DNA of 64,000 nt from a virus. Lineage: Duplodnaviria > Caudoviricetes. The notes under the pieces are model-generated. The model did no database searches and was not told where the DNA came from. It saw only the letters and a list, made by a program, of their open reading frames with translations. Shown piece by piece: positions 48,814-63,954 of this stretch. The stretch spans positions 27,615 to 91,614 of the IMG/VR virus record IMGVR_UViG_3300031951_000074, one strand, 5' to 3'. How positions within the stretch are numbered: the stretch's first letter is position 1; the number at the start of each line of letters is the position of its first letter. A program made the position numbers and the translations under genes.

Positions 48814-48838
48814 TGCACTCTCCGTTGTTTAAAAATCT

Positions 48839-48867: not shown

Positions 48868-48868
48868 A

Positions 48869-49135
48869 TCAATATTTTTGTTCTGTGATTAAACTGACAT
48901 ACAAACGATTCTTAAATTTTTCACTCAATTTTGGAATCAACACACTCCAGATCAAGATTGGAGCTAACACAAGCCCGCCGATCAACAACGAAAAGGTGGC
49001 CATTTTCCAGTTTCGTGCCACCATTGTTTCTGGTTCTGTGACGCGAACTTCTTTAATAACTGGCCAAAAAAGCTCGTACATTGCAGACAGTGATGTTGTG
49101 ATACAGAACAAACAGTAATATCCAAACAGTTCCAT
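48869..49135 (-). CDS. Hypothetical membrane protein
   Basis: Two hydrophobic segments. Confidence 0.55.
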   Translation of the reverse strand: MELFGYYCLFCITTSLSAMYELFWPVIKEVRVTEPETMVARNWKMATFSLLIGGLVLAPILIWSVLIPKLSEKFKNRLYVSLITEQKY

Positions 49136-49518: not shown

Positions 49519-50182
49519 TGTGTTCTCCGATAAAAAATTCTTTTAGTGATGGAAAGTGTTCTGTCAGCTGGTCACGACAGCTAAAAGCAACCTGACGATG
49601 CTCTTTTTGTGTTCCGGCTTCACACCGAAGTTCGCAGTAGTGAATCCAGCTACGCAGTGTGCCGCTCATGTACAACCGGCTCATTGTTAAACCCTCTGGT
49701 AGAATGGCACGGGCTTGTTCTTTTGCAATACCGTTACTAATGGCCCAGTCGTACGTTTGCTTTGCTTTGCGTACTACGTCTTGTTGCAGTTCTTTCCACA
49801 GATCCTGCAGCTCAGCATCGCTGGTTTCAATACTGTTTTGACGGTTTTTGTTGTCTTGTAACCGCGCTTCTTTGAACTCAAAGCCCAATTCGTCTACAAC
49901 AGCATATCGCTGAGAAAACTCCTGAAATGAAAAGCTGCGGTGTCGTAGGATCTGACGTGCAATGTCACGAGTTGTATTGATTTCCATTACAACACTCACC
50001 ATTTCAAATGGTGACCAGTGCTTGTTTTTAGCCAAATATTTTAACAGCTTTGGGGCAGTTGAGGTATTATGTTGGTTGCTTGGATTGCTGACTCGTGCTG
50101 TGTAGGCAACCAAGTCTTCTGCACTAGACAGGTCTAACTCAAGAGGTTTTGTAATACCAATAATTTTGGCAATGTGCATCAA
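49508..50182 (-). CDS. thyX: Flavin-dependent thymidylate synthase
   Basis: 'HWSPFE', 'RQILRHRSFSFQEFSQRY', 'KEQARAILP', 'TQKEH'. Confidence 0.95.
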   Translation of the reverse strand: MMHIAKIIGITKPLELDLSSAEDLVAYTARVSNPSNQHNTSTAPKLLKYLAKNKHWSPFEMVSVVMEINTTRDIARQILRHRSFSFQEFSQRYAVVDELGFEFKEARLQDNKNRQNSIETSDAELQDLWKELQQDVVRKAKQTYDWAISNGIAKEQARAILPEGLTMSRLYMSGTLRSWIHYCELRCEAGTQKEHRQVAFSCRDQLTEHFPSLKEFFIGEHIEQ

Positions 50183-50463
50183 AACTCCGAAGTTGATGGA
50201 GTATCAAAACTGTTTTTTGCTGTTTTTTGTGCGTTGTAGACTTGTTCTACATCAAACATTAAGTCACCCAGTTCTGTTAAAACCTCAACTGGAAGCGGCA
50301 TTACTCGACCACACGTGTCGCGAATAACAAACTCGTCGTTGTCTGTGTATTGGACCTCAAACCAGTAGTGATTTACACCATCACTAAACACTGGAAAATC
50401 GTCGTCTTGTTGTAGGTCGTGGATTTTTGTGTTGATCTTTCCGATATACTTTGATAGATTCAT
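50179..50463 (-). CDS. Hypothetical protein
   Basis: 94 aa acidic ORF. Confidence 0.55.
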   Translation of the reverse strand: MNLSKYIGKINTKIHDLQQDDDFPVFSDGVNHYWFEVQYTDNDEFVIRDTCGRVMPLPVEVLTELGDLMFDVEQVYNAQKTAKNSFDTPSTSEF

Positions 50464-50488
50464 TTTGATTTTGATTTGTGTTGTTGAT

Positions 50489-50563
50489 TGGCGGTCCTGA
50501 CGGGAATCGAACCCGTGTCACCGGCGTGACAGGCCGGCATAATAACCGTTATACTACAGAACC
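50489..50563 (-). tRNA. tRNA-Asp(GUC)
   Basis: CCGGC-CT GTC AC-GCCGG; CCA. Confidence 0.93.
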
Positions 50564-50890
50564 TTTGATTTCGCCATTACTGTAAGCGTGTAGAAACTCT
50601 TTGTTGTATTGCTCAACAGAACACCCTGTTGAGTTTACAACAAACTGCTCCAGTTGAAGGTCTTTAAAGCCGTAGCTCATGCCTTCTAGAATTGCTGCAA
50701 AGATAAAGTAATTGTTCATATTTACTTAGCTAATAGTTTTACTTGAACGCAGGTAGCTTCTTGGTATTTTACTGCTTGCTGCATTCTAACACAGCTGGCT
50801 AGGTCTTCTACTGGAGGCCCAAACACAGTTGGTTTACCACCAGAACTAACTACCAATACCCACACCAGTACAAAAGTTGTCATATTTGTT

Positions 50891-50952
50891 TGGCCCCCAC
50901 TCTTAGATTCGAACTAAGCACGCCAGGCTCTTCAGGCCTGCGCTAAATGGGG
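50891..50952 (-). tRNA. tRNA-Phe(GAA) lacking the D-arm (probable pseudo-tRNA)
   Basis: Acceptor CCCCATT/AGTGGGG, anticodon arm CAGGC-CT GAA GA-GCCTG, T-arm and CCA intact; only TAGCG between the acceptor and anticodon stems. Confidence 0.7.
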
Positions 50953-51224
50953 TTAGTTGATACAAAACCCTCGCCTTCTGCTACAACACACATAAGGTTA
51001 TTGTCTGTTAAAACAAAAGTCCAGGTTTTGGTTGTTTTGTTCAAAAACAAACCGTATACAATCTCCTTTTTTTGTGACATCCAAACTGGAGATTCTTTGT
51101 ACTTGGTTTGTAGTGCGTTAACTACAACGTCGTGCTTGTCGCATTGTAGTTGACTGTTGATTGTGATGGGATCAGCATATGCTAGATTTGCTGATAGTGC
51201 AAGCATTAAAAATGCTTTTTTCAT
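50943..51224 (-). CDS. Secreted hypothetical protein
   Basis: Signal peptide; 'KYKESPVW...TKTWT...C.VAEG'. Confidence 0.6.
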   Translation of the reverse strand: MKKAFLMLALSANLAYADPITINSQLQCDKHDVVVNALQTKYKESPVWMSQKKEIVYGLFLNKTTKTWTFVLTDNNLMCVVAEGEGFVSTNPI

Positions 51225-51233
51225 ATAATCCTT

Positions 51234-51308
51234 TGGTACATCCTGTAAGAATTGAACTCACGACCCTCTCTGTGTAAAAGAGACGCTCTACCACTGAGCT
51301 AAGGATGC
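51234..51308 (-). tRNA. tRNA-Val(UAC)
   Basis: TCTCT-TT TAC AC-AGAGA; CCA. Confidence 0.92.
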
Positions 51309-51309
51309 A

Positions 51310-51388
51310 TGGAGCGGGTAGGGAGAGTCGAACTCCGCGTTCATCAGCTTGGAAGGCTGCTCCTGGCCCCTTCAGGTAGTCTACCCGC
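51310..51388 (-). tRNA. tRNA-Gly(UCC), atypical D-arm
   Basis: GCGGGTA/TACCCGC acceptor, U73, CAGC-CT TCC AA-GCTG. Confidence 0.8.
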
Positions 51389-51478
51389 AGTTTTAGTTTG
51401 ATACTACTACACAACTAACAAAATTGTGTTTTGAAATACCCCATACAATGAAGCTGGGCTTGTGTGGTGTTAGTACAA

Positions 51479-51718
51479 TCACAGTTGATGTACACCAGCA
51501 CTGATGTCTTGATCTTCCAAGTACGCTAGCAGAGTGTCTACTGCTTCGTCGTATTCCATGTTGGACACGTCTGGTACAGTATCCATGTGGAAGTCTTCGT
51601 CTTCCAAGAAGCCCAGAATTGCATCTACACCAGAAGTGCAGTCGTCGTACACTTCGATTTGAACTGTACCGTCAATGTGATGATAAGCTGCAATTACAAA
51701 ACTGTAAAGAGGTTCCAT
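51479..51718 (-). CDS. Acidic hypothetical protein
   Basis: 79 aa, AAGGA RBS, own promoter. Confidence 0.55.
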   Translation of the reverse strand: MEPLYSFVIAAYHHIDGTVQIEVYDDCTSGVDAILGFLEDEDFHMDTVPDVSNMEYDEAVDTLLAYLEDQDISAGVHQL

Positions 51719-51749
51719 TTGTTTGTTCCTTTGTTAGCGTTAAAAGAAT

Positions 51750-51778
51750 ATTTTACTTCAAAAACACATCATACTCAA
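51750..51778 (-). promoter_or_regulatory. Sigma70-type promoter TTGAGT-N17-TAAAAT
   Basis: 17-nt spacer, AAAATTTT upstream. Confidence 0.6.
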
Positions 51779-51792
51779 GATTAAAATTTTAT

Positions 51793-51885
51793 TGGAGGAA
51801 GCGGTGAGACTCGAACTCACACACCTTTTTCAAGGCCTTCTGTTTTCAAGACAGTTGCCGCTAGTCCAACTCGGCTAACGCTTCC
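51793..51885 (-). tRNA. tRNA-Ser(UGA)
   Basis: CTGT-CT TGA AA-ACAG; long variable arm; CCA. Confidence 0.9.
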
Positions 51886-51889
51886 TTTT

Positions 51890-52441
51890 TTATTTATTTG
51901 CTAATGGATTGTCGAGTGCTTTCTTTATTTTTTCATCCATTTCTTTTGACATTTTTCTAAGATCTTGATCAGTTTCACGATCTAGTTTATTCATTTCCAT
52001 TCTTACAGATTTCATTTCTTGATCTACGTCGCGTTGACTTTGTTTTGCACTTCTTTCAACGTTATCTACAACGCCTTCTAATCTGCGAATATCTGTTTTT
52101 AGATCGTTTTTAATGTTGTTTGTGTAGTCTGTGGCTTGGGCTACATTAGTCTCTATGCCATCTAGTTTTTTGTCTAGTACACTTAACTTTTCAGTTATAG
52201 CAGTTAGGTCTGGGGTAACATATTCTGCTATTTTCTTTTTCATGTTTTGATAGTCTTTGTAGACCTCAAAAGCCCCATATAATCCGCCTAAAATACTACT
52301 TGCAAGTGTAAAAGCTACCATTAGTTTAGCTGGCGTAAACTCATATCCGCCAATACTGATTACAGTATCTTTGCTTGCGTATTTTTTGGCCGTTTTTTCA
52401 AGTTGTTCTATTTTTTGATCAAGATCTTTTGTCTCCGCCAT
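51890..52441 (-). CDS. Single-TM coiled-coil protein (ends KALDNPLANK)
   Basis: TM 'LMVAFTLASSILGGLYGAF' followed by a long heptad-rich region. Confidence 0.7.
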   Translation of the reverse strand: MAETKDLDQKIEQLEKTAKKYASKDTVISIGGYEFTPAKLMVAFTLASSILGGLYGAFEVYKDYQNMKKKIAEYVTPDLTAITEKLSVLDKKLDGIETNVAQATDYTNNIKNDLKTDIRRLEGVVDNVERSAKQSQRDVDQEMKSVRMEMNKLDRETDQDLRKMSKEMDEKIKKALDNPLANK

Positions 52442-52443
52442 TA

Positions 52444-53670
52444 TCAATCTCCACGCCTGAACTGTATATCTACTAGTTCCTGCCAGCGGTTTTCTTGTGC
52501 GCCACCTAGTGTTCTTTGTGCGCTTCTGTTGTCGATTGCTCTTTGATTTCTATATACCTCTCGTACTGGATAAAAAGGAATGTCTTTTAAGACCAAAGCA
52601 CTGTAGTTTGAAAAGCCAGTTGGTATAACCTGAAAAGCACTAACCTCTGGTCCGCCTACAATTTCTTGCGGTGAATTAACCGCCAGTGGTTGTTGTTTTT
52701 CTGTTGTTTGAGTAGGTTTAGGTGCAACATTCTGTATTAAAACTACTGGATTTTCTTTTTGTTCTTGTACTACTACTTCTTGCTGAACAACCACTCTAGT
52801 ATTTTCTGTTACCCTGCTTGCTACCACATTTTGTTGCGTTACACGCTGCAGTGCTGTTGGTACGATCTCTGCGGCTTCTACTGCAGTGGTTCTACCACAA
52901 ATCTGTGGATTTGTACTACAATTCTTTTCTAAAAGTGCTCTGGAGTATCCTGAACACTGCGTGCTGTATAATGGATCTAAGTTACATTGTTGAGACAAGT
53001 AGGCAGCATTGTAGTTTTTACAAGAAACATTGTATACTGGGTTAAAGTCGCACTGCTGTAGTGGGTCGTAGTAGTAACTAAAATCTTTTAACTCTGTGTT
53101 ATTTCCGTAGCTTCTAAACCAGTTTTTATATTCATATTTACTTAAGTCACCGCTGTAACCTATTGTAACTGGCTGGCGAGATAACGACACAGAGTTGTAT
53201 CTAAACTCAAAACTGTTGTTATTCCACAACTGTACTTCAAAGCTGTTCTTTCTAACAGGATTGCGATATTCCATCATATCGTACCAACCTATTACTACAT
53301 TGTCGGTCCCCAGTCTTATATAAGGACTTTTGTTGTTAGACACTAAGTCTGTCCAAAGTGGAAACAATGTGTAATTGTACTGAGAATCCAGGTTTTTATT
53401 TAATACCTGTGGCCAATACCCGGGCCTTATGTTTTCATTAAAACTAACAATGCCATTGGTATTTACTGCAACAGTATTAAAGTTTCTGCCGAAAAACTGA
53501 AAACTAAAAGGTAGTGTTATAGGACCACTGGTACCCTCGTCACTTAAGTTGAGCGGCGTTCCTGTTTTTCGTATATCTAATAGTGGATTAGTGCTGTGAA
53601 AAGTCTGACCACTAGAACAACCAACCCATGATCCTAGTAAACAAGCCAGGACTGTTACTTGTTTTTTCAT
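52444..53670 (-). CDS. Secreted protein with a nidogen(NIDO)-like domain and Cys repeats
   Basis: Signal-like N-terminus; 'LPF.F.FFG..F....VNTNG.VSF', 'PLWTDL', 'NSFEVQL'; repeats QC..[ND]P.Y...C..Y. Confidence 0.65.
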   Translation of the reverse strand: MKKQVTVLACLLGSWVGCSSGQTFHSTNPLLDIRKTGTPLNLSDEGTSGPITLPFSFQFFGRNFNTVAVNTNGIVSFNENIRPGYWPQVLNKNLDSQYNYTLFPLWTDLVSNNKSPYIRLGTDNVVIGWYDMMEYRNPVRKNSFEVQLWNNNSFEFRYNSVSLSRQPVTIGYSGDLSKYEYKNWFRSYGNNTELKDFSYYYDPLQQCDFNPVYNVSCKNYNAAYLSQQCNLDPLYSTQCSGYSRALLEKNCSTNPQICGRTTAVEAAEIVPTALQRVTQQNVVASRVTENTRVVVQQEVVVQEQKENPVVLIQNVAPKPTQTTEKQQPLAVNSPQEIVGGPEVSAFQVIPTGFSNYSALVLKDIPFYPVREVYRNQRAIDNRSAQRTLGGAQENRWQELVDIQFRRGD

Positions 53671-54250
53671 TTTGTGTGTCCTTGTTCAAGACTGGTTTTT
53701 GATGTGGATTGTTAGTCCACAAGACCTTGGCTTGGTCTCCTATTTTTCCATCATACGGACAAGGAGTGCCTGCTTCCCACATGGCATCAAACACTCGTCT
53801 GTCTTGACACAACAGTGTAACAGCTGCCACTTTCATTCCCATGTCGAATAGCGTTTTACTCAGCTTTAGTCGTTCACAGTTTAGATCTCGCACAGTACTG
53901 CCACTGCTCAATCCCAATACCTGGGTTTGCATTGCACCGCCTGTTCCTGTAGCGCATAAATCTGGGTTACCGCCACTCATCATGCTTGGCGCAACAGCCG
54001 TTGGCGGAGGCTGGATTATTTTTTGAACAGTATCGTTTTTGTTGGTACTTTCTTGTACAACACTGCTTTGATTTATGTTTGTGTTTGTGCTGGTAGTATT
54101 TCCGTTATTTGTGCTAGTAATAACACTAGTAGTTGTATTTGTAGTATTTGTATTTGTGTCTAACAGACTCTTATTATCGTAGACTGTTTGCCCAAACACA
54201 TAAAAGCTGCTAATGCAAAGCATTGCAGCTACAATTTTTGTCTTTAACAT
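53612..54250 (-). CDS. Secreted Cys-containing protein (PPPTAVAP...NCERLKL...AGTPCP family)
   Basis: AGGAG RBS before ATG 54250; signal peptide; T/N-rich linker. Confidence 0.7.
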   Translation of the reverse strand: MLKTKIVAAMLCISSFYVFGQTVYDNKSLLDTNTNTTNTTTSVITSTNNGNTTSTNTNINQSSVVQESTNKNDTVQKIIQPPPTAVAPSMMSGGNPDLCATGTGGAMQTQVLGLSSGSTVRDLNCERLKLSKTLFDMGMKVAAVTLLCQDRRVFDAMWEAGTPCPYDGKIGDQAKVLWTNNPHQKPVLNKDTQNEKTSNSPGLFTRIMGWLF

Positions 54251-54263
54251 TACTGCTCCTAAT

Positions 54264-54338
54264 TGGGTTCCCATTACGGACTCGAACCGCAACTCCAAGG
54301 TTTTGGAGACCTGGCGACTACCACTATCTTAATGGGAA
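54264..54338 (-). tRNA. tRNA-Trp(CCA), atypical (U1-A72, C73)
   Basis: AGGT-CT CCA AA-ACCT; T-arm TGCGG-TTCGAGT-CCGTA; CCA. Confidence 0.78.
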
Positions 54339-54508
54339 TCAGACAATCAATTCTTCAAATTTGGGAAATACTAAAGTAGTCTTGTGTACCCAAATTGTAA
54401 CACAACGGTCTAGTGTTTTATCGTAATAACAAACTTCGTATGTGTCGTTGTGATGTGACTTTACTTCACAGTCGATTAGCTTGTTGTTGTGGTTGTACTT
54501 AACACTAA

Positions 54509-54655
54509 TCATACAGTTGTCAATACAAACTCTTCTTTTGCTGAACCGCAGTGTGGACAGTTCCAGTACTTGGGTAGTTGTTCCCAGTTCATGCCTGTAT
54601 CTTCTTCGTCGTATAAATACTCACACACTGTACACACCCAATTGTGGTTTTCCAT
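54509..54655 (-). CDS. Rubredoxin
   Basis: 48 aa; CTVC..LYD...W..LP..W.CPHCG..K..F. Confidence 0.88.
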   Translation of the reverse strand: MENHNWVCTVCEYLYDEEDTGMNWEQLPKYWNCPHCGSAKEEFVLTTV

Positions 54656-54672
54656 TTTAAATTCCTTTTTGT

Positions 54673-54750
54673 TGGAACACAGGGTGAGATTCGAACTCAC
54701 GAATCAACGGGTTTGCAATCCGCGCCATTGGACCGCTCTGGTACCTGTGT
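54673..54750 (-). tRNA. tRNA-Cys(GCA)
   Basis: Anticodon loop TT GCA AA; U73; CCA. Confidence 0.88.
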
Positions 54751-54760
54751 ATTAATTATT

Positions 54761-54849
54761 TGGCGGAAGTAGTAGGACTCGAACCTACGCGCCCCTATTA
54801 AGGGCGACAGTTTAGCAAACTGCTGGTTTAACCACTCACCCATACTTCC
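54761..54849 (-). tRNA. tRNA-Ser(GCU)
   Basis: GCAGT-TT GCT AA-ACTGT; long variable arm; G73. Confidence 0.93.
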
Positions 54850-54888
54850 TTAGTAAAAGACTCTTTATAGAACTTTTTACTAAAGAAC

Positions 54889-54963
54889 TGGCTCCCCCGG
54901 GATGGATCGAACATCCGACCAACAAATTAACAGTCTGCTGCTCTACCTCTGAGCTACGAGGGA
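54889..54963 (-). tRNA. tRNA-Asn(GUU)
   Basis: GCAGA-CT GTT AA-TTTGT; CCA. Confidence 0.92.
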
Positions 54964-54968
54964 ATATT

Positions 54969-55154
54969 TTATGGTCTACTGTGGATTATATAGTCTTTTA
55001 CAACATCTGGATCTACATCCCACTGTTGTAGTGGAGTGAGCAATCCAAAAGCTACGTTTGGTGAATTCCACCAGTTGTCACACAGTAACTTACTGCCTAA
55101 AATATAATACACTGCGAGCTGATATTTTGAGGGGATACTTGTTATAGTTGTCAT
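54969..55154 (-). CDS. Hypothetical protein (WWNSPN.AF..TP motif)
   Basis: ATG at 55154 overlaps the deaminase stop. Confidence 0.5.
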   Translation of the reverse strand: MTTITSIPSKYQLAVYYILGSKLLCDNWWNSPNVAFGLLTPLQQWDVDPDVVKDYIIHSRP

Positions 55155-55459
55155 GTGTGATCTACAATTTTGATGCCGGCAGCGGCAATGGCACTGCAAC
55201 AGATACTACACGGCTTTGCTGGGGCCGGAGAACCGTCTTCCAAGAACCGAAAAATCTTCATGCTATGTGCTTTAGATAAGTCTTTACACAAAGTAATAGC
55301 ATGGACTTCGGCATGAAGATACATTTTGTACGGTTCTCCGGTTTTAACAGCGTGATGAGCCTGAAGTGGATGTGTTTTGACGTAACTGTTTTTACCAATG
55401 CTCAACACACGTCCACGACGGTCATAGATTATTGCAGTGATCTTGTATTGCTTCGACAT
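55151..55459 (-). CDS. Zinc-dependent cytidine/dCMP deaminase-like protein
   Basis: HAE and PCxxC motifs. Confidence 0.8.
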   Translation of the reverse strand: MSKQYKITAIIYDRRGRVLSIGKNSYVKTHPLQAHHAVKTGEPYKMYLHAEVHAITLCKDLSKAHSMKIFRFLEDGSPAPAKPCSICCSAIAAAGIKIVDHT

Positions 55460-55466
55460 AGACTAT

Positions 55467-55495
55467 ATTATAGCCTAGTGTGCGTTATTTTTCAA
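55467..55495 (-). promoter_or_regulatory. Sigma70-type promoter TTGAAA-N17-TATAAT
   Basis: 17-nt spacer; transcript close to leaderless for ORF 55459. Confidence 0.65.
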
Positions 55496-55666
55496 GTCTG
55501 AGTTTTTGACTTCTTTTGTGCAGTCGTCACAGTCACCATCAAAATTTTTGTTTTCTCGTGCGTGAACGGCACGTTCTGCTGCTTTGCAAGCCTCCAGTGT
55601 GTCAAACACACAACGGCCCTTTTCACCATACTTGTACTTGTTGTTATTGCATTTATAGCACGGCAT
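55475..55666 (-). CDS. Small basic Cys-containing protein
   Basis: 63 aa 'MPCYKC...KYG.KG.C'. Confidence 0.5.
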   Translation of the reverse strand: MPCYKCNNNKYKYGEKGRCVFDTLEACKAAERAVHARENKNFDGDCDDCTKEVKNSDLKNNAH

Positions 55667-56177
55667 GTTCTAGTTCTTTCTTTAAAGAGTTCCATTCCAC
55701 TGGAATATAGTCAACACACTCCACACTTACATTGTAGTATTTTGGGTGTGTGTTGTTACTGCTATCCAACACTCGGCGATGATGTAAGTGACCGTGAATG
55801 TTGTATTTCCAACGGTAAAGATTGCTTTCATGCACTGGAATGTGTGACAGCAAACAATCTTCTAAGACATGGTAACCACGAATGTCATCAAAGTATGGCA
55901 CATAGTCATGTAGCTTGAAAATGTCGTGGTTGCCCTTGATTAACACTTTGCGGCCGTTTAAACGACTTAAAATCTTCAATGCTTTGCGGTTGATGACCAC
56001 ATCGCCTAGATGATAGACACGATCTTTTGGAGACACAACAGAGTTCCAATTCTTCACCAAATCCTCGTCCATGGAGTCCGCAGTGGTCCAGGGGCGTAGT
56101 TTTGTGTTGTCGTCTCGCAAAAAGTTACACACACCTTGGTGGCCAAAGTGTGTGTCTGAGATCAAAAAGGTTTTCAT
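55653..56177 (-). CDS. Calcineurin-like metallophosphoesterase
   Basis: 'SDTHFGH', 'HLGD', 'GNHD', 'SHIP', 'HGHLH'. Confidence 0.9.
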   Translation of the reverse strand: MKTFLISDTHFGHQGVCNFLRDDNTKLRPWTTADSMDEDLVKNWNSVVSPKDRVYHLGDVVINRKALKILSRLNGRKVLIKGNHDIFKLHDYVPYFDDIRGYHVLEDCLLSHIPVHESNLYRWKYNIHGHLHHRRVLDSSNNTHPKYYNVSVECVDYIPVEWNSLKKELEHAVL

Positions 56178-56539
56178 GACTTATTCAAGTAAAAGTCTGT
56201 TGCCATTGCTGCTGGATTTTCAACACCACAGTGTGCTGCAAAATGTTCTAACAATTCGCGTTCGTGTGATGCGTCGTAGATCGAATTGTGGATCTCCAAG
56301 TACCCTGCATCTTGTGCAGCTGCATAGGCTTCGGGTCCGAAACCAAAGATTTGGTACAACACATAACGATACGTTCCACCGTCCTCAATCTCACCTTTGT
56401 GAATTCGGCGAGATACTGCACAGAAAGCAGCCAACTGCTGTGACGGTGTTAACGAATTCCAGTAGGCCTCTTGTTCGTTTTCGAGTTCTTTCATGGCCTC
56501 TGTATAAAGTCTGGAAAGATTGTCGAATTCTGCGTTCAT
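56174..56539 (-). CDS. Hypothetical protein
   Basis: ATG 56539; 'GTYRYVLY..FGF...AY....GY..IHN'. Confidence 0.6.
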   Translation of the reverse strand: MNAEFDNLSRLYTEAMKELENEQEAYWNSLTPSQQLAAFCAVSRRIHKGEIEDGGTYRYVLYQIFGFGPEAYAAAQDAGYLEIHNSIYDASHERELLEHFAAHCGVENPAAMATDFYLNKS

Positions 56540-56856
56540 ACCAATGTGCTCCAGTCTGTTGATTGTGGTAGGACTTCTACTTTTGAACCAGCTGCTACTG
56601 CGCCCTTGATTAGGAATTCCAGCTGAGAAACACCCCAACTACTTAAACCATAGGATTGAAGATTACACAAGTACTGAGACCCACTGTTACCGTGAAATAG
56701 CACGCACCCATCACTCACTTCGAGAGACGCAACGCCTGAGTTCAACTGCCAGTTATTGCCTCCCATGTAGCCACCATACCAAACTCCAAAAACTTTGTAG
56801 ACAGTTTTGTTTTCTGTTTCAATCTTCAGGACAACCCAGCGATCTGGAATATTCAT
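56536..56856 (-). CDS. Conserved phage hypothetical protein (PD.WVV...W.GGY..W.LNSG...F.G.SGS.Y.C)
   Basis: GAGG RBS before ATG 56856. Confidence 0.7.
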   Translation of the reverse strand: MNIPDRWVVLKIETENKTVYKVFGVWYGGYMGGNNWQLNSGVASLEVSDGCVLFHGNSGSQYLCNLQSYGLSSWGVSQLEFLIKGAVAAGSKVEVLPQSTDWSTLV

Positions 56857-56871
56857 TTTTTCCTCTGTTAG

Positions 56872-56974
56872 TGGTAGGAGAGGTGGGAATCGAACCCACA
56901 TTACTCCGCCTTATCTAGACGGTGCTCTACGAGTTTATAAGGCTCGCCCTTAGGCCAATATTAGCAACTCTCCC
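56872..56974 (-). tRNA. tRNA-Ile(UAU) with a very long variable region (103 nt)
   Basis: Acceptor GGGAGAG/CTCTCCT-A-CCA; loop CT TAT AA; ~30-nt variable region; T-arm GTGGG-TTCGATT-CCCAC. Confidence 0.8.
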
Positions 56975-57064
56975 ATAAGTTAGCATACATTAAAATATCC
57001 TTCAGTAATTGCAATACTATCTCCCGTTTGCATCGGGCGGAATATTTGTATGCTAACTTATGGG
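56972..57064 (-). ncRNA. Unassigned structured RNA: 18-bp stem and a junction with two GCA-centred 7-nt loops
   Basis: CCCATAAGTTAGCATACA/TGTATGCTAACTTATGGG; inner CCCG-ATGCAAA-CGGG and AGTA-TTGCAAT-TACT. Confidence 0.5.
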
Positions 57065-57189
57065 AAGAAAGCGGTCTACTATTACACGCCGGTTACACTA
57101 TCCGGTCGCTACCGTTACGCTAGTGAGGCATCCTAGTCGCCAGTAATAGCATTATAGGTTCAGCAGAATTTTCCTGCAGCCGCTTTCTT
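57065..57189 (-). ncRNA. Unassigned multi-branched structured RNA
   Basis: AAGAAAGCGG/CCGCTTTCTT closing stem; inner CTATTAC/GTAATAG, GCAG/CTGC, CTAG/CTAG and CCGG/CCGG stems. Confidence 0.5.
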
Positions 57190-57192
57190 GTT

Positions 57193-57268
57193 TGGTAGGA
57201 AAGAGTGGGATCGAACCACTGACCTATGCTTTATCAAAACATTGCTCTACCAACTGAGCTACTTTCCC
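57193..57268 (-). tRNA. tRNA-Ile(GAU)
   Basis: ATGTT-TT GAT AA-AGCAT; CCA. Confidence 0.92.
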
Positions 57269-57565
57269 TTAGTCTTTAAATGGAACATCACCACCTACCG
57301 CATAACCATTGTGCTTGTCTGGATCGTAGATTTTCCAAGAACCTTCGATGTTGCCTGAGTAACTTTCATCAAACTCCTCGCCCAGCTCACCGTTGATTTC
57401 TCGATCACTTTCCGGGTAGATCCCATACGACTCTGCGTTTTGAAGTGCAAACATCCAAGCTTCTTGGTCCAATTGTTCGTTTGTGACGTCGTCGTTGTAC
57501 TCACAGAACTCTACAGACTCCATACCAGCATAACCGGTGTGTAGAAAGAATACAATCTTTTTCAT
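57269..57565 (-). CDS. Acidic hypothetical protein
   Basis: ATG 57565; 98 aa. Confidence 0.55.
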   Translation of the reverse strand: MKKIVFFLHTGYAGMESVEFCEYNDDVTNEQLDQEAWMFALQNAESYGIYPESDREINGELGEEFDESYSGNIEGSWKIYDPDKHNGYAVGGDVPFKD

Positions 57566-57577
57566 AGTATGTTTGTT

Positions 57578-57652
57578 TGGCAGGGGATGATGGATTCGAA
57601 CCACCGAATGCTTGAATCAAAATCAAGTGCCTTACCGCTTGGCCAATCCCCT
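57578..57652 (-). tRNA. tRNA-Gln(UUG)
   Basis: CTTGA-TT TTG AT-TCAAG; G73. Confidence 0.92.
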
Positions 57653-57863
57653 ATAGAATGCGTATTTCGTCGATGCGGTTCCAAGCAATCCAAGCTGTGC
57701 TGCAGGTGTCTTCAATGTACTTCAGATCACGAATGCTGCAGTATGGACCGCCAATGATTTTGAAATCTTTTCCGGCCTTCCAGTCTGACAGTGCTTCTTC
57801 TGCAGAATCGTAAATTTTTCCGTAACACGGAAGCAATACCATTGGTCCCATTGCAAAGTTCAT
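57651..57863 (-). CDS. Hypothetical protein (DW.AGKDF...GPYCSIRD)
   Basis: 70 aa ORF coupled to the upstream gene. Confidence 0.55.
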   Translation of the reverse strand: MNFAMGPMVLLPCYGKIYDSAEEALSDWKAGKDFKIIGGPYCSIRDLKYIEDTCSTAWIAWNRIDEIRIL

Positions 57864-58162
57864 AGGTCTTCAATCTTTGTTAAGGTCTTTACTTTGTGAC
57901 CAACAATGGTATCTGTTGGTTCGTACTTGTCGCCGGTTTTCTGATATACTCTGATTAGAGCACCAGGATCTTCTGGTGTGCCAGTGATTTTGAAACTGGA
58001 GCCTGGAACTTGTTCTTCTCCAGACTCAATGATTTTTGTGATCTTGCCGCGGGCAGTGCCACCGCTTGAATTCCAGCTAACGCTGTCTCCTCGTTTAACA
58101 CTGCCGGGTTTTGCTTTTTCTAGCAGTTCTACTACTGCTTTGTAGAAGGTGGAAGCACTCAT
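57860..58162 (-). CDS. Tudor/SH3-like domain protein (HVA1/DUF2945-like)
   Basis: 'GDSVSWNSSGG.A.G.I..I...GTPEDP' motif; AAGGA RBS. Confidence 0.65.
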   Translation of the reverse strand: MSASTFYKAVVELLEKAKPGSVKRGDSVSWNSSGGTARGKITKIIESGEEQVPGSSFKITGTPEDPGALIRVYQKTGDKYEPTDTIVGHKVKTLTKIEDL

Positions 58163-58182
58163 AAGTGTCCTTTATGTGGGTT

Positions 58183-58258
58183 TGGTGGAACGTGCGGGGT
58201 TCGAACCCACGACCAATAGATTAAAAGTCTACTGCTCTACCAACTGAGCTAACGTTCC
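58183..58258 (-). tRNA. tRNA-Lys(UUU)
   Basis: GTAGA-CT TTT AA-TCTAT; CCA. Confidence 0.94.
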
Positions 58259-58270
58259 GATTAAAACATT

Positions 58271-58299
58271 ATTATAGATGAATAAAGCAAAGATATCAA
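58271..58299 (-). promoter_or_regulatory. Sigma70-type promoter TTGATA-N17-TATAAT
   Basis: 17-nt spacer, directly upstream of tRNA-Lys. Confidence 0.72.
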
Positions 58300-58310
58300 A
58301 TCTAAAATTT

Positions 58311-58517
58311 TCAACGATTGAATAGGTGACTAAAAGTCCAAGTCAACAAACTAATCAATCCGCTACCAAGCGCAATAATGCCCCAACGAAGTGCTGAGTC
58401 GCGGTCACGTTGTAGTTGCGCTAAAAGACTCTTTTCTTCTTGTAATTCTTTTTCTAGTAATTCTACTTTTTGCTCTAGTCTTGCAAGAGCTACTGCTTTT
58501 TCAATTTCATCAGCCAT
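58311..58517 (-). CDS. Coiled-coil plus C-terminal TM protein (XhlA/holin-like architecture)
   Basis: GGAGG RBS before ATG 58517. Confidence 0.55.
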   Translation of the reverse strand: MADEIEKAVALARLEQKVELLEKELQEEKSLLAQLQRDRDSALRWGIIALGSGLISLLTWTFSHLFNR

Positions 58518-58576
58518 AGAGGCCTCCCGTCTAATACATATCTCCAAAATTCAAGCTAGTAGCCCTCCTATAAAAA

Positions 58577-58652
58577 TGGTGGAAGATATCGGACTCGAAC
58601 CGATCACCTACGGCTTGCAAAGCCGTCGCTCTCCCAGATGAGCTAATCCCCC
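58577..58652 (-). tRNA. tRNA-Ala(UGC)
   Basis: ACGGC-TT TGC AA-GCCGT; G3.U70. Confidence 0.94.
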
Positions 58653-58692
58653 ATAATAACTTTGATATGGCTAACGCCATATCAAAACTATT

Positions 58693-58771
58693 TGGTCTGA
58701 GTGAGAGGATTCGAACCTCTGACCTCCGAGTTCCAAGCTCGGCCGTCTAACCTGGCTGACAATACACTCAG
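58693..58771 (-). tRNA. tRNA-Pro(UGG)
   Basis: CCGAG-CT TGG AA-CTCGG; C1-G72. Confidence 0.9.
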
Positions 58772-58977
58772 ATTGTTTTGTTCTTACAACAGTCCTCAAA
58801 AGTCTCGAATAGTGTTTCAAACTTCAACTGGTATAAGCTGTGAATTCCTGTCAATAGATTCACAATCTCGTCTTTACTCAAGTCACGTTCCAAAATGGCT
58901 TCGTTGATTAACTCTACATCATTAACAACATTCCAGCAGTGAAGAATTTCTTGTTCTAAGTCAAATCGTGTTTTCAT
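58768..58977 (-). CDS. Hypothetical protein (RFDLEQ.I..CW.V...LY..KF..LF..FE)
   Basis: 69 aa ORF. Confidence 0.6.
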   Translation of the reverse strand: MKTRFDLEQEILHCWNVVNDVELINEAILERDLSKDEIVNLLTGIHSLYQLKFETLFETFEDCCKNKTI

Positions 58978-58993
58978 AGTGTTGTGGTGTGGT

Positions 58994-59069
58994 TGGTGGA
59001 AATAGTTAGATTCGAACTAACGACCAATGCCGTATGAAGACACTGCTCTACCTGCTGAGCTATATTTCC
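58994..59069 (-). tRNA. tRNA-Met(CAU) (elongator or Ile2)
   Basis: GTGTC-TT CAT AC-GGCAT; CCA. Confidence 0.9.
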
Positions 59070-59070
59070 T

Positions 59071-59146
59071 TGGTTGCGGTGCCCTGGAGTCGAACCAGGT
59101 TTCTCTGGCTTATGAGGCCAGCGGATTGCCATCTTCCCCGCCCGCC
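59071..59146 (-). tRNA. tRNA-Met(CAU), initiator-like, with a bulged acceptor stem
   Basis: CTGGC-CT CAT AA-GCCAG; 1:72 mismatch; extra A in the 3' acceptor strand. Confidence 0.78.
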
Positions 59147-59150
59147 ATTA

Positions 59151-59483
59151 TTACCAGTAATAGTTGAATGGTTTTTTCTTTGTGTCTACAAAATCAAAGT
59201 CTTCCAAGTCACAAAACAGAATCTTGTGTTCCATCAAGTGGTGTTGTCGCCGTGTTGGACGATTCATTGTTAGTCGTGTCCACCATGACGGAGTAGTCAT
59301 CCAGTGGTATTCTAAATCCACTTCTTTTCGCTTTTTAGGCTTCAATCCTGGAAGTTCTTTGTACCAGTACCGCAGCTTGTCATTTTCGTTTAAATACGCT
59401 ACTTTTTCAGTAGTGTATAACCAGTCGTATACATCGCGAGGCTTGCGGTGCTTCACTGGAACATCTTTGTGTGTTCTACTCAT
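59151..59483 (-). CDS. Basic hypothetical protein (MSRT...TPSWW..RP.R)
   Basis: GGAGG RBS before ATG 59483. Confidence 0.6.
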   Translation of the reverse strand: MSRTHKDVPVKHRKPRDVYDWLYTTEKVAYLNENDKLRYWYKELPGLKPKKRKEVDLEYHWMTTPSWWTRLTMNRPTRRQHHLMEHKILFCDLEDFDFVDTKKKPFNYYW

Positions 59484-59492
59484 AATACCTCC

Positions 59493-59569
59493 TGGTGCCC
59501 AAGGCGAGACTCGAACTCGCAAAATTTGGCTTCTAAGACCAACACGTATACCAATTCCATCACTTGGGC
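59493..59569 (-). tRNA. tRNA-Leu(UAG), short variable loop
   Basis: TTGGT-CT TAG AA-GCCAA; 77 nt. Confidence 0.88.
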
Positions 59570-59577
59570 TGTCTGAC

Positions 59578-59654
59578 TGGTACCCTCGAAGGGACTCGAA
59601 CCCTTAAAATTTGGATTTTGAATCCAACACGTATACCTATTCCGTCACAAGGGC
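59578..59654 (-). tRNA. tRNA-Leu(CAA), short variable loop
   Basis: TTGGA-TT CAA AA-TCCAA; 77 nt. Confidence 0.88.
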
Positions 59655-59655
59655 T

Positions 59656-59886
59656 TTAAAAGATTGTTACTGCATTAAACTTGTTGTAGTTGTGTTCGTC
59701 TTCGTTGTTCCACCAACCAAGTGATTCGTGAGCGCCTACCCACGACCGACCCTTGTTGTAGTTTTCCAGCAACGTCAGTTCTGAAATGCCAGCAACATTA
59801 TTGTAGCCGCCTTCGTAACCACTGACGACTACTTCTAAATCGGGCTCGTAGTCTTTCAACAGATTGATGAGTTCGTAGACTTTCAT
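59656..59886 (-). CDS. Hypothetical protein (MKV.ELI..L...D.EVVV.GYEGG)
   Basis: 76 aa ORF. Confidence 0.6.
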   Translation of the reverse strand: MKVYELINLLKDYEPDLEVVVSGYEGGYNNVAGISELTLLENYNKGRSWVGAHESLGWWNNEDEHNYNKFNAVTIF

Positions 59887-60080
59887 AGGTTTGCTTTGTA
59901 TTGTTTGATTGCGTCAGCATCCACAGATGCGTAAACACGGAACTTGTCTCGTCCTACGACCTCGTAGAACTCGTTATACATTTTTTCTAGGCTTTCGACT
60001 TGCTCTGCGGTCAGCAGACTGCAATGCACAAAGCGGTCAAGAGCCACATCTATCAAAAACTGTTTAGAATAGCCTGCCAT
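59883..60080 (-). CDS. Hypothetical protein
   Basis: GAGG RBS before ATG 60080. Confidence 0.55.
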   Translation of the reverse strand: MAGYSKQFLIDVALDRFVHCSLLTAEQVESLEKMYNEFYEVVGRDKFRVYASVDADAIKQYKANL

Positions 60081-60103
60081 AGTATTCCTCATCAAAGGAA
60101 ACT

Positions 60104-60132
60104 ATTATACAGGCTATGATTAAACAATTCAA
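60104..60132 (-). promoter_or_regulatory. Sigma70-type promoter TTGAAT-N17-TATAAT
   Basis: 17-nt spacer. Confidence 0.7.
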
Positions 60133-60134
60133 TC

Positions 60135-60947
60135 TTAGATTTCTACAGTCTTCAACCTGAAAGTCTTAGCCAGACTTTCGTATCCAATGTACCCACGAGG
60201 ATTGCACACTACTCGTGTGTTTCCAATGTTGTAGTCATGCGGATCGTGGGTGTGTCCGTGAAACCACAGTGGCACATTGTTGAAGCCTAGGATATCTTCT
60301 TCCAGGTTGCTGTAGTATGCCCAGTTAACAGAGTCGTTTGCTGGGTAGCGTGGGTGTTTACTCAGTGAGCTAGGACCATGATGAGTAACAACTACTACGG
60401 GCAGGTCTGTGTTTTTCACAAAACCCATTAGTGCGTTCTTGCTGTGTACATGCCGACTAACACTATCTTTTGCTTTCAGTTTTCTGTACGTGCCACTATC
60501 ATAGGTGATCTTGGCGTAGTCGTTCATGGAATATTCAATATCCATCATTGTGAGTGGATCCATGTTGTTCATGTCTGTCCACAGAGTACAACCGTAGAAT
60601 TCTACGCCGCCTACTCTTACATGATTGTCTTCCAAAAAGTACACGTTGTTGTAGTTGTCAACAGTCCAGTCACGTAGAACGTCTAGGGTCTTGTTCCACT
60701 TGTAATTGTAAAACTCGTGGTTTCCTGCAACATAGACAACACTTTCAAACTGTTGACTAGCTTGATCAAAGAACTTTTTTGTTGCCAAATACGTTTCGTA
60801 ATACGGGCCTTCAGAGCTGGAGCTGGTTTTTACTGCTCGTGCAAGTGTGACGTCTCCTGCACAGACCAATACGTCTGCATCGTCTGTATTTACTACATCC
60901 AGTTCACCAAATTCAAGGTGAACATCACTGCAAATTGAGATCTTCAT
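60135..60947 (-). CDS. Metallophosphoesterase
   Basis: 'SDVHLEF', 'AGD', 'GNHEFY', 'TLWTD', 'THHGPS', 'HGHTH', 'CNPRGY'. Confidence 0.9.
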   Translation of the reverse strand: MKISICSDVHLEFGELDVVNTDDADVLVCAGDVTLARAVKTSSSSEGPYYETYLATKKFFDQASQQFESVVYVAGNHEFYNYKWNKTLDVLRDWTVDNYNNVYFLEDNHVRVGGVEFYGCTLWTDMNNMDPLTMMDIEYSMNDYAKITYDSGTYRKLKAKDSVSRHVHSKNALMGFVKNTDLPVVVVTHHGPSSLSKHPRYPANDSVNWAYYSNLEEDILGFNNVPLWFHGHTHDPHDYNIGNTRVVCNPRGYIGYESLAKTFRLKTVEI

Positions 60948-61131
60948 TTTTTACTTCTTCAGCGGGTGTGTTATTGCTTCTGTTCAATCCTTCGATCACC
61001 TGTTGAAGCGTTACAATAGCTCTTGCTGCTTGTAGCTCCAAACTGGTTGGAGGGGTGTGGCCCACCAACACATCGTCTTTGTAAACAGGTTTTGGATTGT
61101 TTAATTCTTGTACTAGAATGTTATAGTTCAT
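60925..61131 (-). CDS. Hypothetical protein
   Basis: ATG overlaps the last base of tRNA-Arg; 'PPT.L.L.AARAI'. Confidence 0.5.
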   Translation of the reverse strand: MNYNILVQELNNPKPVYKDDVLVGHTPPTSLELQAARAIVTLQQVIEGLNRSNNTPAEEVKNEDLNLQ

Positions 61132-61205
61132 GGTCAGGCGTGCAGGAATCGAACCCACATTCAGAGCTTAGAAGACTCCTGTATTCTCCATTATACGAAC
61201 GCCCG
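61131..61205 (-). tRNA. tRNA-Arg(UCU)
   Basis: GGAGT-CT TCT AA-GCTCT; CCA. Confidence 0.9.
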
Positions 61206-62355: not shown

Positions 62356-62952
62356 TCAGGGATTGTGTAAGTAAAATGCTTTGCTAAAACCAAGTGGAGT
62401 AATACTGCGTAGTTCTTTTGTTTTTTCTGATTTGCCACCCAGTTTCATGATGGGTGAGTTGCCTAAAAGAGGGTATACTGGTTTTTTGACAGGAACATTG
62501 AAAACTCCCCACAGTCCAGTACGCTTGTTATATGCCTCTGATGTTGGGTCGTCTAAGTACCCAGCATAATCACACGGATTAAAGTAGTATGGCTTTTTTA
62601 GGTGGGGAAATAACTTATTCAATCGTCCAACTGGATTTTCCAAACACCACCAGACCGGCTTGTAGTACTCAACAAACTCAAACACTTTGTTGACCAATGA
62701 CACGCTGTAGTCTGTGCGCCCGTCCAAATCTTTGGTTTTCCAATACTGAGCGCCACTGCTTGCAAAGTCTGTGCATGGAGGAGCTGCTAATATTCCGTGT
62801 ACATGATCCAGTCCCAACTCGCTTGGTATGACATCTAACACGTCTATGCCCAATTTTAAGTCAAACCTGTAAACATCATAACCGGAGTTTTTGTAATAAC
62901 TACTCCAGTTTCCGCTGTAATCAAAAAGAGATATTATTGTTTTACAATCCAT
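62356..62952 (-). CDS. Compact C5-cytosine DNA methyltransferase-like protein
   Basis: 'ISLFD.SG' (motif I variant), 'APPCTDF' (PC), 'ENPVGR', 'RSITP'. Confidence 0.75.
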   Translation of the reverse strand: MDCKTIISLFDYSGNWSSYYKNSGYDVYRFDLKLGIDVLDVIPSELGLDHVHGILAAPPCTDFASSGAQYWKTKDLDGRTDYSVSLVNKVFEFVEYYKPVWWCLENPVGRLNKLFPHLKKPYYFNPCDYAGYLDDPTSEAYNKRTGLWGVFNVPVKKPVYPLLGNSPIMKLGGKSEKTKELRSITPLGFSKAFYLHNP

Positions 62953-63148
62953 AAAATCGCTTACACACTTTGCAGATTGGATTGGAGTCCAAGTCTAATA
63001 CCAATTCACTACTCTTATACCAGATACTACAGCTGCTGCATGTTTCCAAGGTGTTCAGTGGAGCGTCTTCGACTGGTATGTTGAATTCTTTGCAGGCCTC
63101 TAAAAGGCTTATTTTTCTGCGGTAAATACTGTTTTCAAAACTGTTCAT
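62942..63148 (-). CDS. Small zinc-finger protein
   Basis: CSSC...CKVC. Confidence 0.6.
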   Translation of the reverse strand: MNSFENSIYRRKISLLEACKEFNIPVEDAPLNTLETCSSCSIWYKSSELVLDLDSNPICKVCKRFYGL

Positions 63149-63486
63149 CTTATTTTTCTGTCGTCATTGGTATAAATATCCTTGTGTTGGATGTAATACA
63201 AAAGAAAGATTAGGTTACACACAGCGTGTGCTAAGTGGCTTTCGTTAGTTTCTGGATCCAGATCACGTCCTCGAGTCCACTCAAAGATGTGGCGCAGAGT
63301 GGCTGAAATTACTCGTGTGTACTTAAAGCCAGATCCCTCACTCCAGTTCCATGCTGAGTACTTCTGACTACCGAAGTGTAACACTCGTACCACTGGTTCT
63401 AATGCTTCCATTGGAATCAGACTCCAGTCCAGCTTGAGGTTGTCGTGTTTGACTGGAGATATTTGTTTTGTTAGGTTATCATTCAT
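63145..63486 (-). CDS. dATP/dGTP diphosphohydrolase-like protein (DUF5664)
   Basis: 'KHD..K..WSLIP', 'FG..KY..WNW..G', 'RH', 'DPE...SHLAHA.CN..FL'. Confidence 0.85.
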   Translation of the reverse strand: MNDNLTKQISPVKHDNLKLDWSLIPMEALEPVVRVLHFGSQKYSAWNWSEGSGFKYTRVISATLRHIFEWTRGRDLDPETNESHLAHAVCNLIFLLYYIQHKDIYTNDDRKIR

Positions 63487-63504
63487 TTATAGTAAAATTG
63501 AGAG

Positions 63505-63723
63505 GCCCGGTACTTCCCCGGGCAAAAAGAACGGTACCTTTCTTTTAAGCACGATTACCCTGTGCTTCTAGTATAAAACGCAGATATAACACAATTTCTG
63601 CAAATAACTGCCGTGCGGGTTTTGTAGAAGTTTGTGTGGTATTTCTACGCTTGCGAACGGCTTAGGGACTATTTTTTTACTTCTTGGCTACTCGCCTGTT
63701 AGAGGTAAATGCCAAAACCTCTA
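63505..63723 (-). ncRNA. Unassigned ~220-nt multi-hairpin, multi-pseudoknot RNA
   Basis: Six hairpin domains with mutually complementary loops in an ORF-free gap (see findings). Confidence 0.6.
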
Positions 63724-63903
63724 GTGGTATTCTTTTTTGGGCTGCAGTAGAGCGGCCGTTTTGGGCTTTAAAACTTTAAACAACTCTAGTGTTAGTGCTG
63801 GAGGGTCCAGGTTCTTTTCTTGGAAGTAACGATTGTAGACTGGTAATAGTTCGTTTACAATGCATTCTTCTAAAACTGTAACATAGGGTTCTTTAAAATT
63901 CAT
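63721..63903 (-). CDS. Hypothetical protein
   Basis: GGAG RBS before ATG 63903; 60 aa. Confidence 0.55.
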   Translation of the reverse strand: MNFKEPYVTVLEECIVNELLPVYNRYFQEKNLDPPALTLELFKVLKPKTAALLQPKKEYH

Positions 63904-63925: not shown

Positions 63926-63954
63926 ATTATAGCATAGGCATGGTGTTGTTTCAA
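63926..63954 (-). promoter_or_regulatory. Sigma70-type promoter TTGAAA-N17-TATAAT
   Basis: 17-nt spacer, AAAATTT upstream. Confidence 0.72.

Follow-up and report, generated by a model that had tools for sequence, protein, structure and literature searches.

Does the 234-nt gap between two small minus-strand genes of a phage hold an ordinary spacer or a structured RNA, and what would such an RNA do there? The DNA analyzed here, called the window (64,000 nt), is taken from an IMG/VR virus record, linear, 91.6 kb long and 87% complete, and spans its bases 27615-91614. The element in question occupies 63723-63505 on the minus strand of the window, 277 nt from the record end. A preliminary description, drawn from the letters of the window, had proposed a structured RNA with several loop-loop pseudoknots in this gap and had offered a ribozyme, a protein decoy or a riboswitch-like leader as its possible identity.

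Genes around the element

The gene order is as described beforehand, with a promoter and a 60-aa ORF (ORF60) upstream and the DUF5664 (now PF18909), zinc-finger and methyltransferase genes downstream (Table 1). The promoter-like site in front of ORF60 is likely the start of the transcript that carries the RNA. ORF60 matches no Pfam or PHROG family. Its predicted structure (pLDDT 75) consists of a long helix and a short one, which offers too little for a fold search to be informative. The UAG stop codon of ORF60 (63723-63721) constitutes the first three bases of the first hairpin of the element, P1.

The 68-aa ORF behind the PF18909 gene overlaps both the hydrolase stop (ATGA) and the methyltransferase start, which suggests a translationally coupled set of three genes. 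Its two-CxxC protein is strongly conserved (window 62942-63148; 2812-3018 in the relative L095) and matches no Pfam or PHROG family.

With Rfam models, 19 tRNA matches and a permuted tmRNA were found in the window, spanning 47919-61205 on the minus strand; tRNA genes lie within 2-3 kb of the element's counterparts in relatives as well. The tmRNA (48167-48576) matches the permuted (two-piece) and the betaproteobacterial models over the full length of both, and two-piece tmRNAs of aquatic phages appear in the available part of PMC9004378. PurZ (PF00709) is absent from the 87%-complete record, hence there is no sign of a Z-genome.

Table 1 Features of the element, its neighbors and the long variant
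Feature	Position	Strand	Evidence or remark
Sigma-70-type promoter-like site, TTGAAA-17-TATAAT with TG	63926..63954	-	11/12 match; upstream of ORF60
ORF60, conserved 60-aa protein	63721..63903	-	33 database relatives
P1 hairpin, UAGAGGU/ACCUCUA, conserved loop UUUGGCAUUU	63700..63723	-	100% paired in 10 sequences
P2 small hairpin, GGC-GAGUA-GCC	63686..63696	-	GC:9 CG:1
Conserved A-rich linker and GUCCCUAAGC, after P2	63685-63660	-	alignment
P3, GCCGU (63661-63657)/ACGGC (63614-63610), enclosing P4	63610..63661	-	covariation
P4 hairpin, GUAGAA/UUCUAC, loop L4 AUACCACACAAAC	63624..63648	-	covariation
ACACAA in L4, partner of L5	63637-63632	-	loop-loop pairing
P5 hairpin, GCAGA/UCUGC, loop L5 with UUGUGU (63594-63589)	63580..63601	-	kissing partner of L4
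P6 hairpin, AAGCAC/GUGCUU, loop with conserved AGGGUAA	63547..63567	-	comparison
P7 hairpin, AAAAGAA/UUCUUUU	63525..63546	-	ACACAGAU/AUCUGUGU at the same position in relatives
P8 hairpin, GCCCGG/CCGGGC, 3′ boundary of the conserved element	63505..63523	-	18 nt before the start codon
PF18909 gene (dATP/dGTP diphosphohydrolase N-terminal domain, formerly DUF5664), 113 aa	63145..63486	-	E 2e-27; PHROG 801
68-aa CxxC...CxxC ORF, after the PF18909 gene	62942-63148	-	ORF list
DNA methyltransferase gene, after the 68-aa ORF		-	PHROG 757; followed by UvdE
Strong promoter-like site in L006	1871-1899		ahead of the RNA of the long variant
Terminator-like hairpin in L006	2416-2435		U-run can also pair downstream

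The element in a single sequence

All seven hairpins and the enclosing GCCGU/ACGGC helix of the preliminary description are present on the minus strand at 63723-63505. The gap is free of ORFs, as had been said: stop-free runs reach at most 24-39 codons across the six frames, and no minus-strand ORF of at least 30 aa lies inside. Nor is any reading frame kept between lineages, where stop-free runs reach 19-69 codons at most. When deep lineages are compared in translation, the matches do not exceed 23 aa and fall in several frames on both strands, with none between the window and the divergent homolog L007.

Taken singly, the sequence folds little better than its shuffles. The z-score of its minimum free energy is −1.9, with 7 of 200 shuffles as good, and single-sequence z-scores are weak altogether (−1.9, −1.65 and −2.46). 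Loop complementarities in the single sequence are no more than chance. When the stems were kept and each unpaired stretch was shuffled, 6 of the 7 loops had a complement of at least 5 nt elsewhere versus a mean of 4.0 in the shuffles (fraction at or above the observed value, 0.07), and a loop-loop match of at least 6 nt, of which the element has one, arose in 13% of the shuffles (fraction 0.13).

Homologs upstream of the same gene

A blastn search against 50,697 phage records of GenBank found no match, and locus searches of viral contigs with single proteins found no relatives. A PF18909 protein profile led to 160 loci, of which 9 gave a full-length nhmmer match to the window RNA, located on the upstream side of the gene; an nhmmer profile added one partial match and L007. 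A covariance model of the 5′ domain, R1, was then built from the window and 7 relatives, leaving L007 out. R1 scores 100 bits on the window, 134-145 bits on the 9 relatives, and 42.8 bits (E about 1e-8) on L007, which is not in the model. Weak matches are L005 and L089 (21 bits), L215 (15.6 bits), and L006, L091 and L092 (15 bits), the homology of the RNAs of L215 and of the L005/L006 group being weaker. All remaining loci (about 230 were searched) stay at or below 16.4 bits with R1, and none of them was accepted as homologous.

The homologs in the 9 close loci and L007 occupy the same place, between ORF60 and PF18909, and every homolog accepted by nhmmer or R1 among the roughly 230 loci is directly upstream of the PF18909 gene. 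One copy was found in each of 5 phage records. The closest relatives by protein (P0001-P0004 and P0036) are known as proteins only. The RNA is conserved over its full length while the neighboring protein is just 56-60% identical. Between deep lineages, identity is 56-68% in the 5′ domain versus 50-57% in the 3′ part, a small difference. The RNA family is small, with about five lineages, and its fixed synteny may therefore merely reflect relatedness.

Wider searches extended the family no further. A pattern scan of 185,579 species genomes gave 45 matches, about the estimated chance number and none convincing. Among the loci L169-L213, the nhmmer profile matched nothing convincingly (best E 0.079), and R1 hit only L207, L208 and L212 of the pattern-scan loci, at 11-13 bits (E 0.35-1). 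The last viral scan added 14 loci, none above 16.4 bits with R1. Incidentally, L165-L167 were set aside as chance matches, and the R1 matches in L090 and L041 (13 bits) as spurious, L090 having no spacer at all.

Helices kept by compensating changes

When the 5′ domain was aligned across 10 sequences, standard pairs made up 97.6% of 207 cells, and 10 of the 21 pairs proved to be changed on both sides. In control, 0 of 500 shuffles reached any of five measures, and slid partners were only 29-47% paired. Over the full length of 8 distinct relatives, 57 pairs were assessed, among them those of the kissing contact described below; 98.5% of cells are paired and 7 pairs show double changes, in P4, P5a and P6. 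G-U pairs make up 38 of the 207 cells of the 5′ domain; these would be A-C mismatches on the opposite strand, so the RNA strand is that of the genes. Since the helices are kept via compensating changes in related phages, the element is a real RNA element.

The outer three pairs of P1 vary among the 10 sequences (UG/CG/AU, GC/GU and GU/GC/AU), and the counterparts of P2 are GC-GAAA-GC in relatives and GCC-UCA-GGC in L007. Three of the 7 pairs of P3 are changed on both sides, with 97% paired, as are 5 of the 6 pairs of P4, and the P5 stem differs in sequence in every lineage. AGGGUAA, in the P6 loop, was found in the window, 9 relatives and L007, and the short closing stem of P6 covaries among relatives (CG:6, UA:2). 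The P8 stem is identical in the window and 8 relatives. P7 and P8 are invariant within the relatives, so that it is the window-versus-relatives comparison by itself that speaks for these two.

In L095 (2056-2305) and other relatives, the octamer AUCUGUGU occurs twice. One copy is in loop L5 and the other forms the 3′ strand of P7, and each is complementary to L4 and to ACACAGAU, the 5′ strand of P7, which allows mutually exclusive pairings. The window does not have this doubled-octamer arrangement.

A search of Rfam 15, which had been suggested at the outset, returned nothing at 63487-63730 at gathering score with 4227 models. At E≤10 there were only three matches of 14-16 bits, all on the plus strand and none on the RNA strand. 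No Rfam model matches the RNA of L095, L004, L007 or L093, or the long variant in L006 (see below), and the tRNA and tmRNA models match 20 other places of the window, not the element. The P8 loop reads GGAAGUA in the window versus UGCGAUC in relatives, hence no T-loop is conserved. Together with the compensatory helix changes, the lack of an Rfam match bears out the proposal of a structured non-coding RNA outside the known classes. The element represents a structured-RNA family that is genuinely new and for which a single kissing contact is supported. T-box, RNase P, SRP RNA, 6S RNA, Y RNA and phi29 pRNA, weighed by their known features, were dropped for want of an Rfam model match.

One supported kissing contact

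The preliminary description had listed four loop-loop pairings and proposed a covariation check in homologs. The check favored the contact between L4 and L5, and the other three pairings fell, so the several pseudoknots had been overstated. Pairing of UUGGC with GCCAA has its middle pair in 1 of 10 sequences, the window alone, and shows no covariation; the GCC of this pairing is the 3′ strand of the covarying hairpin P2. Opposite an invariant GGGU, relatives read ACUA or ACCA in place of ACCC. For GGUAC with GUACC, 3 of the 5 pairs are unpaired in 8 of 9 sequences.

The pairing of ACACAA with UUGUGU (L4:L5), by comparison, is represented by 6-8 contiguous pairs in all 10 sequences. There are 6 Watson-Crick pairs each in the window, the L004 group and L007, and 8 in the L095 group. 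The two loops read ACACAA/UUGUGU in the window, CUACAA/UUGUAG in L007, and UAUACAGA/UCUGUGUG or UAUACA/UGUAUG elsewhere. The contact is kept despite unrelated P5 stems and loop lengths of 12, 15-20 and 6 nt. Relative to shuffled L5 loops, it gives fractions of 0.0025-0.05 for 9 sequences and 0.32 for L093. Among relatives, at one position 4 sequences have a G-C and the other 4 no pair, and in a cross-lineage table L007 alone is clearly specific for its own partner. With this half-unpaired position and specificity in L007 only, the comparative support for an L4:L5 kissing contact is moderate, below R-scape grade.

A caution on method follows, as single-sequence loop complementarity was at chance level and it took several phages side by side to tell the one supported contact from the three unsupported ones.

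The gene pair with and without the RNA

Spacers between ORF60 and PF18909 were surveyed in 29 loci having both genes, two of which have an unmeasured spacer. The genes overlap by 4-34 nt in 3 loci (L085, L090 and L216) and are separated by 48-70 nt in 8 (L082, L083, L084, L088, L094, L103, L104 and L106), by 205-265 nt with the RNA in 11, and by 623-919 nt in 5. As the pair occurs both with and without the RNA, the RNA is an addition in part of the clade, and the gene pair is the older module. The 48-70 nt spacers carry a sigma-70-type, TTGAYY...TATAAT-like pair directly after the ORF60 stop. These 8 phages seem to provide the hydrolase gene with a promoter of its own, at the site occupied by the RNA in the window.

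Where the RNA is present, neither the RNA itself nor the stretch between it and ORF60 revealed a promoter-like site in four lineages (window, relatives and L007). No U-tract terminator follows P8 in the relatives, and a terminator of the RNA's own is absent from the window, relatives and L007 alike. L007 has an equivalent promoter-like site before its ORF60. No Shine-Dalgarno-like (SD) motif precedes the ATG of the PF18909 gene, and SD-like motifs are found in 38 of 78 of the phage's genes versus a 6% background. The PF18909 genes behind short promoter-bearing spacers also have no SD.

The reading frame of ORF60 meets the RNA, its stop being the first P1 triplet in the window, and runs through in two other lineages. 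In L215 (2001-2210), the ORF60 frame is open through P1-P2. In P0036, the last 19 residues match the window's P1-P2-linker translated in one frame (15/19) and end at a UAA before P3. With a small-ORF frame open through P1, P2 and the linker in these two lineages, the structured RNA is partly annotated as coding there.

A long variant is found in L006 (1863-2485) and also in L005, L089, L091 and L092, where about 620 nt of non-coding DNA separate the ORF60 homolog from PF18909. Its layout is a promoter-like site (11/12), a structured RNA of about 510 nt, a terminator-like hairpin with a U-run, an SD and PF18909. R1 matches it weakly (15-21 bits), its fold includes a P1-like hairpin, and 13 of 135 predicted pairs are changed on both sides between its two subgroups. 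After the terminator-like hairpin of L006, there is no room for a separate PF18909 promoter. In L005, an extra ORF lies between ORF60 and the RNA, which still adjoins PF18909. The long variant could be an enlarged relative of the element, or else a large RNA in its own right.

Function of the element

Our tentative preference, at slightly less than even confidence, is for a structured leader that acts in cis, within the ORF60-PF18909 transcript, and gates the hydrolase gene. Four observations favor it: the fold is on the sense strand, the RNA is invariably placed about 20 nt before PF18909, neither promoter nor terminator belongs to the RNA itself in four lineages, and the long variant is laid out as described above. 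Of the identities offered in the preliminary description (ribozyme, protein decoy, riboswitch-like leader), the riboswitch-like leader fits the position best, and nothing in the analysis pointed to a ribozyme or a protein decoy. As in riboswitches generally, a conserved, aptamer-like element is directly upstream of a gene and on its sense strand. The missing SD agrees with the leader reading, yet it is common to loci without the RNA.

Co-transcription, the regulatory output and the nature of the signal are what we infer in the following scheme. Transcription would begin at the promoter at 63954, and the mRNA would include ORF60 and continue into the PF18909 dNTP-pyrophosphohydrolase gene. The 5′ domain of the element would be made up of P1 and P2, the A-rich linker, the arm of P3 and P4, and finally P5, L4 and L5 being joined by the kissing contact, followed by a lineage-specific 3′ module (P6-P8 here) that ends about 20 nt before the SD-less start codon. 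The fold of the 5′ domain would decide whether the 3′ module permits hydrolase translation or, in the long variant with its terminator-like hairpin, whether the hydrolase gene is transcribed. The input could be a small molecule or a protein, in the manner of a riboswitch, or a ribosome terminating on ORF60 at or inside P1-P2.

A search for a riboswitch platform found a terminator-like hairpin in the L006 group only and a complementarity between the 3′ strand of P1 and AGGGUAA at invariant bases; no alternative (switch) pairing is backed by covariation. A more specific proposal, which we regard as unlikely, is a sensor RNA of a hitherto undescribed class that would respond to a nucleotide-pool metabolite as a riboswitch or be read by the terminating ribosome, and with which a group of abundant freshwater phages would time or dose a dATP/dGTP pyrophosphohydrolase. 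If it is true, the 5′ domain with L4:L5 would be a previously undescribed aptamer-like fold.

Conserved loops and tRNA-rich surroundings equally suit a stable trans-acting small RNA, cut from a polycistronic transcript as phage tRNAs are and directed at a host or phage target, a reading that we hold to be unlikely but a serious contender. Its proposed targeting loops (UUUGRCRUUU, ACAAAC and AGGGUAA) would account for unpaired sequence conserved across deep lineages, and the element is at the edge of the region with the 19 tRNA matches and tmRNA, the relatives' tRNA genes being within 2-3 kb. The L006-group RNA between its strong promoter-like site and terminator-like hairpin is arranged like an independent gene, and short contigs from RNA libraries cover parts of the element (see below). 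However, a trans-acting RNA would hardly be expected to go without its own promoter and terminator in the window, relatives and L007, never to leave the PF18909 start in the loci searched, and to have the ORF60 frame pass through P1-P2 in two lineages; the PF18909 gene of L006, with no room for a promoter after the terminator-like hairpin, also speaks for a leader. A special case of cis action, which we consider improbable, is a translational relay that replaces the stop/start overlap of RNA-less phages: the hydrolase would be translated only after ORF60, either because the fold joins the ORF60 stop to the SD-less start or because the terminating ribosome opens P1. The 4-34 nt overlap in 3 loci, the ORF60 stop as first P1 triplet and the missing SD before PF18909 in RNA-carrying lineages (the long L005/L006 variant has one) agree with such coupling. 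The promoter-like site in the 48-70 nt spacer of 8 loci, however, argues that coupling is not general for the gene pair, and no conserved helix joins the 5′ and 3′ ends, which are about 240 nt apart and share only 2 weak pairs.

The same gene pair with and without the RNA could also reflect a self-splicing or self-cleaving RNA, or another mobile insertion between coupled genes. Small group I introns have a similar size range and a multi-hairpin shape, and the element is within that range in both respects. We nevertheless consider an intron, ribozyme or mobile insertion very unlikely, given that no Rfam intron or ribozyme model matches the window or 4 relatives at E≤10. The first P1 pair is UG in 5 sequences, CG in 4 and AU in 1, with G-C or U-A as inner pairs, so no U-G is conserved. 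P7 and P8 are adjacent (0-2 nt), leaving no strand to close a P7-like pseudoknot, and the sole long-range complementarity, GUCC with GGGU, is invariant. ORF60 and PF18909 are separate, complete and conserved, and RNA-less loci show an overlap or a promoter-like spacer but no fusion. One copy per genome is likewise at odds with a mobile insertion. Least probable of all, in our judgment, is an ordinary spacer whose hairpins arose by chance or serve as a DNA-level signal such as an origin or recombination site. The weak z-scores, the chance-level loop matches and the many gaps of at least 200 nt in this genome would suit it, but it is contradicted by the covariation of the helices, by the 38 strand-specific G-U cells and by full-length conservation beside a protein that is just 56-60% identical.

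Relation to known RNAs

Cobalamin and lysine riboswitches are long structured 5′ leaders with a loop-loop contact. Like riboswitch leaders, the element is on the sense strand directly upstream of a gene and has a multi-helix part held by a kissing contact; its 3′ part is lineage-dependent, and one variant ends in a terminator-like hairpin. Unlike them, it matches no Rfam riboswitch, lies between two cistrons rather than after a transcription start and has no supported switch helix. It shares with small phage group I introns the length, the many hairpins, the tertiary loop contacts and presence or absence at one site, but the defining features examined (P1 U-G, P3/P7 core and in-frame exons) were not found. 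Stable RNAs of phage tRNA regions and the ROOL and GOLLD RNAs resemble it in the position beside a tRNA/tmRNA cluster and the ornate fold; the element differs in having no Rfam match and in being tied to one protein gene, and it is much smaller than ROOL or GOLLD.

The available portion of PMC10690425 reports 8,495 candidate structured RNAs of 29-151 nt from IMG/VR, 879 of them lying no more than 25 bp upstream of a gene whose product has a known domain. The element has in common with these candidates the data source and being a phage intergenic RNA with covariation support, but differs in length (about 220-260 nt); part of it may already be listed in that catalogue. The gene 32 leader pseudoknot, a translational operator of a phage mRNA covered in the same portion of PMC10690425, is also a structured leader before a phage gene of nucleic-acid metabolism and possibly protein-bound, although the element is several times larger and of other architecture.

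Our literature searches turned up no report of an RNA that lies upstream of DUF5664, MazZ or MazG genes. According to the accessible part of PMC12884076, stand-alone DUF5664 proteins hydrolyze dATP, dGTP and dUTP to monophosphates; the words ‘upstream’ and ‘intergenic’ occur 0 times in that text. As such proteins are dNTP pyrophosphohydrolases, the gene behind the RNA would act on the host dNTP pool. If the RNA gates the hydrolase gene, it would be a new example of phage control over nucleotide metabolism, and if it binds a ligand, a new riboswitch class.

Occurrence in sequencing runs

Sampled words of a 901-nt query were found in 20 sequencing runs, and at least half of them in 14 runs from 12 coded studies (freshwater, lake-water and fungus metagenomes), among which the source sample may be included. 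The phage is thus widespread.

Contig cover was assessed in four runs that are RNA libraries or guessed to be RNA, X15 being only guessed. Contigs of X17 cover 63505-63603 with 100% identity, those of X19 cover 63505-63655 and 63384-63458, both at depth 2-4, and X16 covers part of the PF18909 gene only; short contig cover among the four runs also includes 63505-63857. The depth was low and DNA carry-over is possible, hence the contigs do not establish transcription, and stretches left uncovered carry no information.

Contigs of X15, X17 and X19 stop matching the window at 63505, the last base of P8, beyond which variant strains differ. The variant strain of X15 has 71 different letters in place of 46 nt between P8 and the PF18909 N-terminus (window 63458-63505), and the junction that follows P8 is a replacement hotspot.
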